The notes: generated from the sequence alone by a model not told the origin. Shown: positions 28,711-45,066, counted from the stretch's first letter. The stretch is 64,000 nucleotides of DNA from Anaerolineales bacterium (GCA_016932475.1 JAFGCU010000025.1:30808-94807), one strand, 5' to 3'. Translations and numbers: made by a program.

Positions 28711-29769
28711 TCAGCGGGAAGTGAAGGCGAGCCGCTTCAAGACCGATTCGAGCGCTGTCACGGACCGTTCGAATTCGCCCAGATCAATCCGTTCCTCCGG
28801 AGTATGATCCAGGGTCGAATCGCCCGGTCCATACACCGCCATCGGACAGTTCCATTCCGGCCCAACGACATTGATATCCGATGTTCCAAGCTTGAGGCTG
28901 AACGATGGATTTCCGCCCTGGGCGCGAATCGCGGCCAAGAGCGCGCCGACAACGGGTGTGTTCTTTTCCACCCGGTAGGCGGGCACCGGCATGCCCTCGA
29001 TTCGCAGTTCCCCCGCCCCTTCCGTGGCTTCCCGCATGAATCGTTCCGCTTGTTCCGGCGGAATGGATTGTGGAAGCCTGAGATGGCCTCCCATTTCGGC
29101 GGTCTCCGTGAATCCGTCGCCGGATGTCGACATTTTTTCCAGCACCGGCGTGATCTGGGCAAATTTCCGTTCGGCGCCGCCGTTTTCCCGCACGGCGGTT
29201 GCCACCAGCCTGTTCCAGAAACCCACCGCCGTTTCGCATGCGCTTTCCTGGCCGGCCGCGGTGTGTCCGATGGTATGCCGCGCCCGGAACCGGAAACGGG
29301 TTATTCCACGGTACCCGAGCGTGATCCGGTCCCATCCGCTCGGCTCGCCGATCAGCGCGTACCGGGGATGATACCGGCCCGCCGCATGACGCGCCCCGGC
29401 GGAATCCCCTTCCTCATCGACCGCGCCGATCACCACCACCTCCCAGCCGGGGATCGCGCCGCTGCGCGCCGCGGCATCCACAAACGCCGCCAGCGGACCT
29501 TTCGCGTCCACCGATCCGCGTCCATGCAGAACTCCGCCCTCCATACGAACGTCGATCCGGCCGGGAACCGTATCGATGTGCCCGAGCAGCACGATCTGGT
29601 TCGGGCCGTCGCCGATCCTCCCGACCGCATTCCCGGCTTCGTCGGCATCGGCCGAGGTGAAGCCCAGCGAGCGCATGTGCGCCACCAGCCAAGCGACGGC
29701 TTCGCCTTCCTGGCCGGTTGGGCTGTAGCGCTCGACCAATCCGAGCAGCGTTGCAGACGGTTGTGTCAT
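28711..29769 (-). CDS. lysK: [LysW]-lysine/[LysW]-ornithine hydrolase (M20 family)
   Basis: [43 protein letters not shown]; last gene of LysW operon. Confidence 0.9.
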
Positions 29770-30013
29770 TTTCCTGCCCGTCCTCCATATTCAAGATGAA
29801 TGCCGGATGCATCCCGGGCTGGCTTCCCTTCGGGTTAATCATATCCGAAATCCGCCCGCTCCCCTCAGCAACCCATCCCCCATTTCCCCCGTGGGACGGG
29901 ATAATTTTCAGATCGGAAGTCCGTATTTGCCGCACCCTTTTCCCTCTTGAACACGCATCGATAACACTCCGTAATTTGTAATTTGGGAGGATTCTTCGCG
30001 AGGTGAAATCAGC

Positions 30014-31942
30014 TTATCCAGGGGTTGATTTGCCGCCCGCCTTCAGGTGCGCAATCAATCCGCCGGCCTCCAAGAGCGCCCTCACGTTCGGCGGAAAGGG
30101 CGGATAGGGGAAGACGCCCTTTGGGAGGATCACCTCGCCGCGCGCCAGATCCACTTTGACCGGATCGCCCTTTCGCGCGGCGGCCACAGCCTCCGGGCAT
30201 ACGATCGCCGGCAGCCCCTGGTTGATTGCGTTGCGGTAGAAAATGCGCGCAAAGGATTCGGCCACCACCGCGCGGACGCCGCGCCCCTTCAGGCAGGTGA
30301 CCGCCTGTTCGCGGGATGATCCGCAGCCCATATTTCTTCCCGCAAAGACGACATCACCCGGTTTGGATGAGGGTACAAAATCCGGATCGAGGTCCTCCAG
30401 CGCGTGCGCGGCGATTTCCCCGGGGGTCCGCAGTGTATACGTATATTTGCCCGGGAAAAGTTGATCGGTGTTGACGTTGTCGCCGTAGACCCAGGCGGAT
30501 CCGTCGGCGTTATAGGGTGAGGGCTTCCCGGCCGGTTTTCCCGGAGAAGTGTTTTTTTCGCCGCGCCCGGCGCGCAGATCGGTCCCCCGCAGTAGTTGTA
30601 GAAATCCGGAGGCGGATTCCGGCGAGTCGACGCCGAATTCCTCCGCGGTGGGAATTCTGCCCAGCAATGCCCCGAGCGCGACCAACGCCGGCGAGCCCAG
30701 ATAAATTTCCGCGTCCGGCTGCCCCATGCGGCCCTTGAAATTCCGGTTGGCGGTGGAGAGAACGACCTCGCCCGCGGCGGGTATTCCGAGATGGTTGCCC
30801 ATGCACGGGCCGCAGCCCGGGACTCCGATCATCGCGCCCGCATCCAACAGCGTTGCAATCACACCTTCCTGCACCGCCGCGCGGTAGATCTCCGCCGACG
30901 CCGGAATGACCAGGAAGCGCGTTCCGGCATGGACTTTCTTTCCGGAAACGGTTTTCGCCGCCGCGCGCAGGTCCTCCAGGCGCCCGTTGGTGCAGGTGCC
31001 GACGAAGGCCATGTCGATCGGGCGGCCGGCCGCTTCCGCGAGAGTCCGCCGCCGATCGACTCCGTGCGGCGCGGCGACAAGCGGGCCGATCGCGGCAAGA
31101 TCGATTTCATACTCCGCCAGATACTCCGCGCCCGGATCCGCCGTGAGCGCCAAAGAAACGCAATCCTCTCGCCGCGCGCGGCCCGACGGGCGGGAAGCGA
31201 GATAATCGAAGACCGCATCATCCGGCGCGAGAAACGCGTTCTTCACGCCGAACTCGGCCATCATATTCGGGATGACCATCCGGCTGTCGATCGAAAGCGA
31301 GCGCAGTCCCGGTCCGTCGAATTCGACCGACAGGTACAACCCGCCGCCAGCCCCCAGTTCGCCGATGACGGCCAAGCATAAATCCTTCGAGGTCACGCCG
31401 GGGCGTAAATTTCCCCGCAGCGTGATGTGGACGCTCTGAGGCACCCGCAGCCACAGCTTGCCGGCCGCCCACAGCGCCGCCGCCTCGCTGCGGCCGATCC
31501 CGGCCCCGAACGCGCCCATCCAGCCGTGATGGGTGGTGTGGCTGTCCGCGCCAAGGATGACTTGGCCGGGCAGGAGCAGCGCTTCCTCGCCGACCACCTG
31601 GTGGCAGATCCCCCGTCCGATGTCGAAAAAATCCCGGACTCCCTGCTCGCGCGCGAAGGCCCGCGCTTCGGCATGGTTTTGGGCGTGCTTGGTCGTGGGC
31701 GGCGGGGAGGCGTGATCCAGGACGATCACCAGGCGCGAAGGATCGTGCACCTTCCGCGCGCCGAGTTCTTTGTGGAAAATCTGGGCGATGGCGGCGGTGT
31801 TATCGTGCGAGAGGATCCGGTCCGGGCGCGCCTCGAGGATCTCGCCGGCGCGGGCGTCGGCCGCGCCGGCCGCGCGGGCCAGCGCCTTTTCGGCGAACGT
31901 GCGCGCCTGTCCCGCGACGTGCGCAGGTTCGATCTTGATCAT
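30014..31942 (-). CDS. Homoaconitase / isopropylmalate-isomerase-type hydratase, large and small subunits fused
   Basis: TFAEK, LDH, GICHQ, GADSHT, GTCTNG, PGCGPC, NRNFKGRMG then GDNVNTDQLFP, GCGSSRE, FARIFYRNAINQG in a single frame; start uncertain. Confidence 0.9.
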   Translation of the reverse strand: MIKIEPAHVAGQARTFAEKALARAAGAADARAGEILEARPDRILSHDNTAAIAQIFHKELGARKVHDPSRLVIVLDHASPPPTTKHAQNHAEARAFAREQGVRDFFDIGRGICHQVVGEEALLLPGQVILGADSHTTHHGWMGAFGAGIGRSEAAALWAAGKLWLRVPQSVHITLRGNLRPGVTSKDLCLAVIGELGAGGGLYLSVEFDGPGLRSLSIDSRMVIPNMMAEFGVKNAFLAPDDAVFDYLASRPSGRARREDCVSLALTADPGAEYLAEYEIDLAAIGPLVAAPHGVDRRRTLAEAAGRPIDMAFVGTCTNGRLEDLRAAAKTVSGKKVHAGTRFLVIPASAEIYRAAVQEGVIATLLDAGAMIGVPGCGPCMGNHLGIPAAGEVVLSTANRNFKGRMGQPDAEIYLGSPALVALGALLGRIPTAEEFGVDSPESASGFLQLLRGTDLRAGRGEKNTSPGKPAGKPSPYNADGSAWVYGDNVNTDQLFPGKYTYTLRTPGEIAAHALEDLDPDFVPSSKPGDVVFAGRNMGCGSSREQAVTCLKGRGVRAVVAESFARIFYRNAINQGLPAIVCPEAVAAARKGDPVKVDLARGEVILPKGVFPYPPFPPNVRALLEAGGLIAHLKAGGKSTPG

Positions 31943-32052
31943 GAAACCTGCGCGATCACGCAGCGGGGCGGCCTTTTCCGCGCCTGCCCTCGGCGCGGTC
32001 TTTCGCCGGGGGAAATGCGCAGGTTCGCATTTGGTCTTGGAACCTGCGCGAT
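31920..32052. repeat. Pair of gcgcaggtt..aacctgcgc hairpins
   Basis: Hairpins at 31921-31953 and 32016-32049 separated by a GC-rich spacer. Confidence 0.7.
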
Positions 32053-32064
32053 CATGAAGCGGGA

Positions 32065-43677: not shown

Positions 43678-43701
43678 CGTCGTATCCTTCCCCGCCAGAC
43701 C

Positions 43702-43800
43702 TCTCCCACCTCCCCCTCGTTCCCCCTCCTCCCTCCCCGTAACGGGGAGGGAGGAGGGGGAAGTCCCGAGCGCAGCGAGGGATAGGGGGAGGTGGGAGGG
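43702..43800. repeat. CCCTC-family palindromic element at argG/argH junction
   Basis: Outer 15-bp stem ctcccacctccccct/agggggaggtgggag, inner 18-bp stem ccccctcctccctccccg-taa-cggggagggaggaggggg; inverted homolog at 52845-52952. Confidence 0.9.
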
Positions 43801-43806
43801 GTCTGG

Positions 43807-45066
43807 TTAATCCCGGTCCACTTCTTCCGGGGGAACCGGCGGAATGCCCTTGCCGCCCTCTTCCAGCAGCGCGCGCACCTTGAGCGGAAGGCCGAAGAGG
43901 TGGATGAAGCCGGCGGCGTCCGAGTGGTCGTACACCAGCGAATGGCCGAAGGTGGCGAAATCCTCGCGGTAAAGGCTGAACGGGCTGGACCGCTTCTGCA
44001 CGATCACGTTGCCCTTGTACAGGTCCAGCGTGATCGAGCCGGTCACATGTTCCTGAGTCTTGTCGATGTAGGCCTGCAGGTCCTCCCGCAGCGGGGTGAA
44101 CCACTGGCCGAAATAAACCAGCTCGGCGTAGCGTTGGGCGACCCTTTCCTTATAATGCTGCGTCTCCCGGTCAAGGGTGATGCTTTCCAGTTCGCGATGG
44201 GCCGCCACCAGGATCGTCCCGCCGGGCGTCTCGTACACGCCGCGGGATTTCATGCCCACCAGCCGGTTTTCCACCAGGTCCACCCGGCCGATGGCGTTGC
44301 GTCCGCCGATGTCGTTGAGCGCCTCGATCAGTTTCGCGCCCGCCAGCTTCTTCCCGTTGAGGGAAACCGGATTCCCGCGCTCGAAGCCGATCTCGACCGT
44401 TTCCGGCCGGTCCGGCGCCTTCCCGGGCGAGACGGTCAGTTGGAAGAGATCCTCTTCCGGAGCATTGGCAAGATTCTCGAGCGGCCCGCCCTCGTGGGAA
44501 AGGTGCCACAAATTGCGGTCCCGGCTGTAGAGAGATTTTCCGGTCGTATCCGGAAGGGTGATGTGGTGCGCCTTCGCGTACGCCACCGCATCCTCCCGCG
44601 AGCGGATGTTCCATTCGCGCCAGGGGGCGATGACCTTCAGGCGCGGGTTGACCGCGGTGTAGGTGAGTTCGAAGCGCACCTGGTCGTTGCCCTTGCCGGT
44701 GCATCCGTGCGCGACGGCATCCGCCCCGACCTGCTCCGCCGCCATCACCTGATGTTTGGCGATCAGCGGCCGGGCGATCGACGTCCCGAGCAGGTACTTG
44801 CCCTCGTAGACCGCGCCGGAGCGGATCAGCGGGAAGATGTAATCGCGCGCGAATTCCTCGCGCAGGTCCTCGGTGATAAGCCGGGTGGCGCCGGATTCCC
44901 TGGCGCGTTTGGCCAGCGACGCGGTTTCCCCCACGCCCTGCCCGATATCGGCGGTGAAGCACACCACCTCGCACCCGTAGGTTTCCTTGAGCCAGGTGAC
45001 GATGATCGAAGTATCCAGCCCGCCGGAATAGGCGAGCACGGCTTTCTTGACCCTGTCCTTCGGCAT
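43807..45066 (-). CDS. argG: Argininosuccinate synthase
   Basis: [52 protein letters not shown]. Confidence 0.98.

Follow-up and report, generated by a model that had tools for sequence, protein, structure and literature searches.

A merged arginine and lysine operon with a single LysW carrier and a single LysX ligase in an Anaerolineales bacterium: a candidate bifunctional pathway

Here, we describe an operon from an Anaerolineales bacterium that joins genes for arginine and lysine synthesis around one amino-group carrier protein, LysW, and one LysW-loading ligase, LysX. The operon lies in a 64,000-nucleotide stretch of DNA (GCA_016932475.1 JAFGCU010000025.1:30808-94807), hereafter the window, which belongs to contig C44 of a 3.65-Mb genome in 129 contigs (97.8% complete, 2.1% contaminated). 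The closest public relatives are Anaerolineales or Anaerolineae metagenome-assembled genomes (MAGs), with LysX up to 96% identical; Leptolinea is more distant. Twelve co-directional genes occupy the minus strand from 45066 to 28711, and all could be named by NCBIfam or sequence comparison (Table 1). Their order is argG, argH, lysW, lysX, lysY, lysZ, carA, carB, lysJ, a homocitrate synthase (HCS)-like gene (hcs), a fused homoaconitase gene (hac) and lysK. A preliminary description, made from the sequence alone, had reported this content as one operon and marked its limits, and 12 of 12 genes lie within them; its statement that the operon has no argF, argJ or argA and no homoisocitrate dehydrogenase gene was also correct, and we found no Iso_dh-family gene there either. 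The gene junctions are tight: the lysX stop and the lysY start share the letters ATGA, lysZ and carA overlap, and hcs overlaps the lysJ stop. LysW has a zinc ribbon (CPEC...CPDC), an acidic tail (AEDWGE) and a C-terminal Glu.

Table 1. Operon genes and putative control elements, in the direction of transcription (window positions).
Feature	Coordinates	Strand	Evidence or remark
sigma-70-like promoter, TTGACA-17-TAAAAT	45295..45323	-	11/12 matches
leader open reading frame (ORF), 23 codons, ..LKARARR..	45212..45283	-	one Lys codon, three Arg codons
intrinsic-terminator-like hairpin + T-run	45135..45168	-	11 bp, 7 GC; between leader ORF and argG
argG, argininosuccinate synthase	43807..45066	-	NF001770 598 bits; ATG 45066 with ribosome-binding site GGAGAAGGAG
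argH, argininosuccinate lyase	42304..43677	-	TIGR00838 571 bits
lysW, amino-group carrier protein, 55 aa	41940..42107	-	TIGR01206 59 bits; Pfam Zn_ribbon_LysW PF21344 62 bits
lysX, LysW-loading ATP-grasp ligase	40985..41896	-	TIGR02144 358 bits; motif F-I-T-T-S
lysY, ArgC family reductase	39945..40988	-	argC family TIGR01850 376 bits; start ATG 40988
lysZ, [LysW]-aminoadipate/glutamate kinase, ArgB family	39066..39869	-	NF010659 404 bits; start ATG 39869
carA, carbamoyl-phosphate synthase small subunit	37939..39069	-	455 bits
carB, carbamoyl-phosphate synthase large subunit	34680..37937	-	1549 bits
lysJ, LysW-linked semialdehyde aminotransferase, ArgD family	33384..34556	-	LysJ_Th_th 474 bits; argD subfamily 446 bits
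homocitrate-synthase-like enzyme, HMGL-like + HCS_D2 domains	32065..33381	-	TIGR02146 235 bits
fused homoaconitase	30014..31942	-	large + small domain; hacA_fam 469 bits, LeuD_arch 167 bits
lysK, [LysW]-lysine/ornithine hydrolase, ArgE/DapE family	28711..29769	-	NF003367 382 bits, cut-off 363

A tblastn search of the genome with all 12 products as queries found no paralog of LysW, LysX, LysY, LysZ or LysK; its only further matches were a second carB, the leucine enzymes and an ornithine aminotransferase gene that resembles lysJ. Family searches of the whole genome gave one LysX above the cut-off (TIGR02144) and one LysW (PF21344). Among the genes that the preliminary description proposed to look for in the genome, a second lysX, argJ, argB and argC were not found and argF was, as a lone gene on contig C70. 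The genome searches likewise found no ArgE paralog, and ArgJ was not found in 11 other members of the family that were searched. Arginine synthesis is complete except for the conventional ornithine route, and LysZ, LysY, LysJ and LysK are the only ArgB-, ArgC-, ArgD- and ArgE-like machinery. Because neither a second enzyme set nor ArgJ was found in a genome that is 97.8% complete, ornithine most likely derives from LysW-bound glutamate. The carA of the operon is the only copy found in the genome; the second carB, full-length and 51% identical, is on contig C25 (locus L010) at 4655-7900 and has no adjacent carA.

Two genes of the operon point to a 2-oxoacid-extending branch. The nearest solved structures to the HCS-like protein are the homocitrate synthases of S. 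pombe and Thermus (202 and 192 bits), compared to no more than 87 bits for isopropylmalate synthase structures, and in the alignment it keeps residues R12, H72, R133 and S135 of the Thermus enzyme, which reportedly hold the distal carboxylate of 2-oxoglutarate and bind lysine. The dehydratase has the layout of a fused homoaconitase, with a large domain, a linker of ~45 aa and a small domain, and it scores above the hacA-family cut-off and below the aconitase cut-offs. Its small-domain loop, which is said to have a role in substrate specificity, reads KYTYTLRT, compared to YLRT in Methanocaldococcus homoaconitase and YLV-Y in isopropylmalate isomerase. A canonical citrate synthase (436 bits), AcnA (1331 bits) and an NADP-dependent isocitrate dehydrogenase (ICDH; 647 bits) are encoded elsewhere in the genome, so the hcs/hac pair is surplus to the tricarboxylic acid (TCA) cycle and is not needed for 2-oxoglutarate. 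Four Iso_dh paralogs are present in the genome. One of them, on contig C41, could not be assigned as a homoisocitrate dehydrogenase by phyletic profile, its orthologs occurring mostly in HCS-negative families; nor could a second isopropylmalate dehydrogenase-like gene, on contig C121, the orthologs of which overlap HCS-positive genomes only in part. The gap between hcs and hac (31920-32063) carries two tandem 48-nt hairpin copies that are 83% identical, and the downstream copy has the likely hac start, ATG 31942, in its loop. The hac ORF is open from 32068 but the family matches begin at residue 57; because the start codon sits in the downstream hairpin copy, the open frame is probably inflated by 42 codons.

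Dual specificity of the single LysX would be the key step of a bifunctional pathway. A five-residue specificity motif has been published for LysX and ArgX: it is F-I-T-N-S in Thermus LysX, I-Y-V-G-F in Sulfolobus ArgX and Y-I-T-N-A in the bifunctional LysX of Thermococcus kodakarensis (PMC12998189), and it ends in Ala-Leu in the glutamate-specific ArgX of Natrinema (NgArgX; PMC10433800). Alignment of the window LysX to solved structures, the closest of which is Thermus LysX (3VPD, 317 bits), gives F-I-T-T-S (F182, I192, T203, T259, S260). The peptide that the preliminary description had singled out, EFHTS against EFKNS in Thermus, was read correctly and falls on the last two motif positions, in a motif of the putatively aminoadipate-competent type. 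Four of the five positions are identical to Thermus and the fifth changes N258 to T; this N is missing from all Anaerolineae homologs but one, whatever their motif type. The T. kodakarensis signature is not matched, and the hydrophobic last residue of NgArgX (Ala-Leu) and Sulfolobus ArgX (Gly-Phe) is not present in the window LysX, which ends Thr-Ser. The rate of Thermus LysX with glutamate is below 10% of that with aminoadipate, and Thermus LysZ, LysY, LysJ and LysK are promiscuous toward the glutamate series (PMC12998189). The promiscuity of these four enzymes suggests that LysX is the gate.

We sorted 79 related loci into four architectures: A, with the gene order of the window, carAB included; B, with the same order without carAB; C, with lysW-lysX1-Y-Z-J-K followed by an hcs-like gene, a hac-like gene and lysX2; and D, with argG-argH-lysW-X-Y-Z-J-K without hcs/hac. 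In clusters with hcs/hac between lysJ and lysK, the last motif residue is S or T in all 23 of 23 ligases. Ligases of the arginine-only type D end in L or A, and in type C the lysW-adjacent ligase reads M/F-I-T-T-L and the copy beside hcs/hac F-I-T-S-T; among dedicated paralogs of the ArgX type, the last residue is L, M, V or A. We also surveyed markers across the order in 121 genomes of 90% completeness or more. LysX exceeded the cut-off in 62 genomes, window-type HCS was found in 34, lysA in 43, ArgJ in 13 and DapF in 5, and 60 LysX genes from these genomes were fetched and motif-typed. The eight sampled ArgJ-positive genomes with LysX have solely polar ligases (F-I-T-S-T or F-I-T-N-S), as do the single-ligase, ArgJ-negative, HCS-positive genomes of families f1, f2, f3 and most of f8. 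HCS-negative, lysA-positive, ArgJ-negative genomes (family f13) have I-M-T-T-M, I-I-T-T-L or V-M-T-T-L, and two-ligase genomes have one polar and one hydrophobic type each. On a 141-row tree, the window LysX belongs to a clade of 53 rows (SH-aLRT 96) from which the hydrophobic type is absent, and the hydrophobic state requires four changes, at least two of which are forced by well-supported branches. We infer that polar-type LysX can use aminoadipate and repeatedly gave rise to paralogs dedicated to glutamate, which would be simplest to explain if glutamate was already a substrate of the polar type. The operon recurs, together with carAB, in four genomes of sister genera (G018, G105, G032 and G096), whose HCS is 87-94% identical to that of the window and whose LysX, in the three that were typed, is 92-94% identical with the same motif. 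Searches of these four genomes found no lysA, dapL or ArgJ, and no route to lysine or arginine other than the operon is apparent in them.

LysX has a third paralog, with the motif Y-S-T-S/A-S, which is encoded by itself outside the lysW clusters at loci L053, L057, L063, L066, L080 and L133 (the last in genome G062). It occurs in some Anaerolineales that also have a cluster LysX, and it nests in the polar-type clade. Another locus (L029) is a 1.8-kb contig binned as 'uncultured Alcaligenaceae', the LysX of which lies at zero branch length from Anaerolineales UBA6663; the label is probably a binning error in a public MAG.

Upstream of argG, the operon begins with a strong promoter-like site, a short leader ORF and a terminator-like element (Table 1). 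With ~12 nt between this site and the ATG of the leader ORF, the transcript may be nearly leaderless. The terminator element (AAGCCCTCCG...CGGAGGGCTTTTTT) recurs in relatives. Among the window and 26 related loci in which argG heads the cluster, 24 of 27 have an ATG-initiated ORF of 19-43 codons with a run of R and K (for example KPRARR, RSKRSK, RRASRR or RSRRSR), followed by a terminator upstream of argG, and the arrangement is shared by several families of Anaerolineales. In many relatives, another leader and terminator unit lies directly upstream of lysW (~200 nt), with runs such as LKRARRxPK, PKRRP and PLKKRS (loci L020, L021-L026, L030-L034, L042, L046, L051 and L067-L085). In the four loci with both leaders, a small sample, the argG leader has four Arg codons and zero Lys codons and the lysW leader has Lys with Arg in three of the four automatic picks; at L036 the Lys and Arg mix is in another ORF seen there, not in the automatic pick. 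The genus of the window has a single leader, of the mixed Arg/Lys kind. This codon pattern, small as the sample is, would be consistent with arginine and lysine both controlling the enzymes common to their synthesis. Rfam gave no match to a riboswitch, T-box or leader family in the window or in the contig with the diaminopimelate (DAP) genes considered below, and we regard the leader ORF and terminator as a candidate Arg (perhaps Lys) codon attenuator without an Rfam family. Transcription from the promoter upstream of the LKARARR leader would have to pass the terminator to reach argG; this arrangement suggests that expression is probably tuned by the charging of Arg-tRNA, perhaps also of Lys-tRNA. 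The gap between argH and lysW (42108-42303) is AT-rich; a GC hairpin in it, GGCGCGCCGGAGCGCGCC, is conserved in the genus and directly precedes the ribosome-binding site of lysW. A 15-codon ORF in this gap, MADEIRVIHKKRICR (..HKKRICR), was considered as a second, Lys-codon leader and rejected, being neither conserved in the genus nor followed by a terminator.

On balance, we lean towards a single-ligase, bifunctional LysW pathway for lysine and ornithine in a bacterium, resembling that of Thermococcus. One transcription unit would supply one LysW, one LysX and one set of LysZ, LysY, LysJ and LysK for two pathways. In the arginine branch, LysX would join glutamate to the C-terminal Glu of LysW, and LysZ, LysY, LysJ and LysK would convert it to ornithine; ornithine and carbamoyl phosphate from CarAB would then yield arginine via ArgF, encoded elsewhere, followed by ArgG and ArgH. 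In the lysine branch, HCS and the fused homoaconitase would extend 2-oxoglutarate toward 2-oxoadipate and alpha-aminoadipate, with a dehydrogenase and an aminotransferase also required beyond the assigned genes of the operon. The same LysX would load aminoadipate on LysW, and the same four enzymes would produce lysine. Lysine synthesis by this LysW set is probable. The preliminary description had likewise read the operon as making both products on one carrier with bifunctional enzymes. The single LysW/X/Y/Z/J/K set, the failure to find ArgJ, ArgB or ArgC in the genome, the polar motif, the argF gene elsewhere, the surplus hcs/hac pair and the presence of the operon in sister genomes where lysA, dapL and ArgJ were not found speak for this reading, and a DAP cluster on another contig speaks against it. 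A broader proposal, which we advance tentatively, extends this design to an entire clade within the Anaerolineales, whose members would build lysine as well as ornithine/arginine on a single carrier loaded by one LysX with a polar pocket. Such a clade would preserve, in living bacteria, the bifunctional ancestor of the carrier pathways that the Nishiyama group postulated, in which case glutamate-dedicated ArgX paralogs would have arisen from it more than once within the order and the merged operon would be under a previously undescribed Arg/Lys-codon leader-peptide attenuator.

Several observations weigh against a bifunctional pathway or its proposed control. The score of the HCS-like protein falls short of the NCBIfam equivalog cut-off (TIGR02146, 235 versus 413 bits). 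None of the four Iso_dh paralogs in the genome could be assigned as homoisocitrate dehydrogenase, and no aminoadipate aminotransferase was assigned, although no search was aimed at it. Residues F182, I192 and T203 are common to the window LysX and Thermus LysX. In NgArgX, a motif swap left specificity unchanged, so the motif is not fully determinative (PMC10433800). ProB and ornithine aminotransferase could in principle provide a formal alternative route to ornithine. The DAP genes may add to or replace the lysine supply in the strain of the window, and across the order many genomes, belonging to families f3 and f8, encode hcs together with lysA. For the attenuator, ribosome-masked folding leaves the terminator in the minimum free energy structure, so that an antiterminator is unsupported. 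A duplex between the spacer and the 5' arm of the terminator was no more stable than in shuffled sequences among 24 argG leaders (mean z -0.7, none with p<=0.05) or 41 lysW leaders (mean z -0.17).

One alternative, which we consider unlikely, is that the operon serves lysine alone, as in Thermus. LysX would then be specific for aminoadipate, ornithine would be taken up or made from glutamate through ProB/ProA and an ornithine aminotransferase working in reverse, and the arg genes would merely share the operon. The F-I-T-T-S motif is indeed one position from the Thermus F-I-T-N-S, the best scores of LysZ, LysJ and LysK are to Thermus-type lysine models, and both ProB (434 bits) and ornithine aminotransferase (523 bits) are present in the genome. 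However, argG, argH and carAB share the operon behind an Arg-codon leader, and the separate ArgJ/ArgB/ArgC pathway that this alternative leads one to expect was not found in the genome. The frame argG-argH-lysW-lysX-lysY-lysZ is also that of the arginine-only clusters of relatives and of the haloarchaeal ArgW pathway (PMC10433800). We considered ornithine aminotransferase as a marker of such a route and rejected it, as its distribution does not follow ligase type. The enzyme was not found in some single-ligase, ArgJ-negative genomes (G067 and G002), whereas it is common alongside a dedicated ArgX or without LysW, occurring in all 11 ArgX-type f13 genomes and in genomes without a LysW system. 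This distribution suggests that it does not track the need for ornithine and behaves as a catabolic or proline-related enzyme rather than as a substitute for ArgX.

Less likely still is that the operon makes arginine alone, as the ArgW system of haloarchaea does, with a LysX that accepts only glutamate, lysine supplied by DAP genes and hcs/hac making a 2-oxoacid for another purpose. A dapB-dapA-lysA-dapL island does lie on contig C28 (L007, genome G000) at 4882-9934, adjoined by genes for an AraC-type regulator and an RhtB-type exporter, with scores of 357 bits for dapA, 152 for dapB, 529 for dapL and 291 for the lysA-like gene (cut-off 298). The preliminary description had named a LysX with only one substrate together with an acetyl-ornithine or DAP pathway elsewhere as evidence that would tell against bifunctionality; this cluster supplies part of a DAP pathway, but neither DapF (TIGR00652, PF01678) nor Ddh was found in the genome, where 97.8% completeness allows a gap. 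The set of the DapL variant (dapA, dapB, dapL, dapF and lysA) is therefore incomplete for lack of a recognised DapF. The island was found in five of eight genomes of the genus searched, including that of the window; searches of the family's three remaining genera, sister genera that keep the operon, did not find it. The dominance of Arg codons in the leader and a gene order like the haloarchaeal argG-argH-argW-argX would also suit arginine synthesis alone. Against it, NgArgX and all ligases inferred to be of the ArgX type have a hydrophobic last residue that the window LysX lacks. The hcs/hac pair also lies within the run from lysJ to lysK, with hcs overlapping the lysJ stop, and is surplus to the TCA cycle. 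Contamination is an unlikely origin of the DAP contig because four further genomes of the genus have the lysA-dapL pair, which in one case sits on a contig longer than 2 Mb. Order-wide, lysA was found in far more of the surveyed genomes than DapF (43 versus 5 of 121), which suggests either an unrecognised DAP epimerase or a different role of these LysA homologs.

The idea that hcs and hac encode a Re-citrate synthase, as known from Dehalococcoides and Clostridium kluyveri, and an aconitase that feed 2-oxoglutarate and glutamate into arginine synthesis is very improbable and was rejected: the HCS-like protein is below its equivalog cut-off and the fused protein partly matches a PRK07229-type aconitase (340 bits), but citrate synthase, AcnA and ICDH already exist elsewhere in the genome, the fused protein clears the hacA-family and not the aconitase cut-offs, and the residues for the distal carboxylate of 2-oxoglutarate are conserved.

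Lysine and arginine synthesis on LysW is a textbook case of pathways that specialise from promiscuous ancestors. To our knowledge, bacteria are known experimentally only with the lysine-only form, and the one-ligase bifunctional form is known only from the archaeon Thermococcus. The forms described in the literature are lysine-only systems in Thermus and Deinococcus, a two-ligase system in Sulfolobus (Ouchi et al. 2013, as reported in PMC12998189 and PMC10433800), the single bifunctional LysX/ArgX TK0278 of T. kodakarensis (Yoshida et al. 2016, as reported in PMC12998189) and arginine-only ArgW systems in haloarchaea such as Natrinema gari J7-2 (PMC10433800). Our literature search found no description of a bacterial single-ligase bifunctional system or of an arginine leader-peptide attenuator of this kind; a genomic study of Thermoflexus mentions only an incomplete 'LysW pathway'. 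As far as these reports summarise the T. kodakarensis system, it resembles the window in having one carrier, one ligase, one LysZ/Y/J/K set and no acetyl-glutamate pathway, with aminoadipate-forming genes clustered with the carrier genes. The window differs in being bacterial, in its motif (F-I-T-T-S versus Y-I-T-N-A), in a dual activity predicted from gene context and motif, and in an operon that adds argG, argH and carAB and so reaches arginine itself. Here, the homoaconitase is fused, the cluster has no homoisocitrate dehydrogenase and the genome has a partial DAP island. Sulfolobus, to the extent that the same reports cover it, also has a carrier and downstream enzymes common to lysine and arginine synthesis, but two ligases, as in Leptolinea-type relatives, compared to one here. 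Thermus thermophilus provides the closest sequences for LysX, LysZ, LysJ and LysK, and its HCS resembles that of the window, as does its LysX motif in F-I-T and the last S. Unlike the window, Thermus has a separate ArgJ/B/C/D arginine pathway, whereas none was found here and the arg genes are in the operon; its LysX favours aminoadipate more than 10-fold. Natrinema gari has the same order of argG, argH, carrier, ligase, reductase and kinase, and DAP genes in the same genome, but NgArgX, with Ala-Leu where the window ligase has Thr-Ser, is glutamate-specific, and haloarchaea lack the hcs/hac that the window operon contains (PMC10433800). The leader resembles the trp, his, thr, leu and pheA attenuators in placing a short ORF rich in product codons and then an intrinsic terminator before the first gene, and differs from them in its Arg (and some Lys) codons, the lack of an Rfam match and the lack of a demonstrated conserved antiterminator.

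What is new here is probably a bacterial one-ligase variant of the LysW system fused with argGH and carAB. A single order contains four forms, namely single-ligase, two-ligase, arginine-only and lysine-only with ArgJ, and the polar or hydrophobic character of the last motif residue is a simple correlate that makes a subfunctionalisation model directly testable. Automated annotation would assign the operon to lysine synthesis, so that the organism would seem to lack an ornithine pathway; the bifunctional reading would correct this. The Arg-codon leader is, in addition, a candidate regulatory class for arginine operons.

The wider intergenic gaps of the operon are filled by hairpin repeats and contain no recognisable control elements. 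Nested perfect hairpins with arms of 23 nt and 21 nt lie between argG and argH (43695-43806), and a GC hairpin lies between lysY and lysZ (39900-39945); both are REP-like repeats dispersed within the operon. The flanking genes were assigned to no family, and none is from the pathway. Two ORFs of 392 and 369 aa on the minus strand at 45500-47790, without an NCBIfam or Pfam match, occupy a low-GC stretch (0.51 versus 0.61-0.65) directly upstream of the operon promoter.

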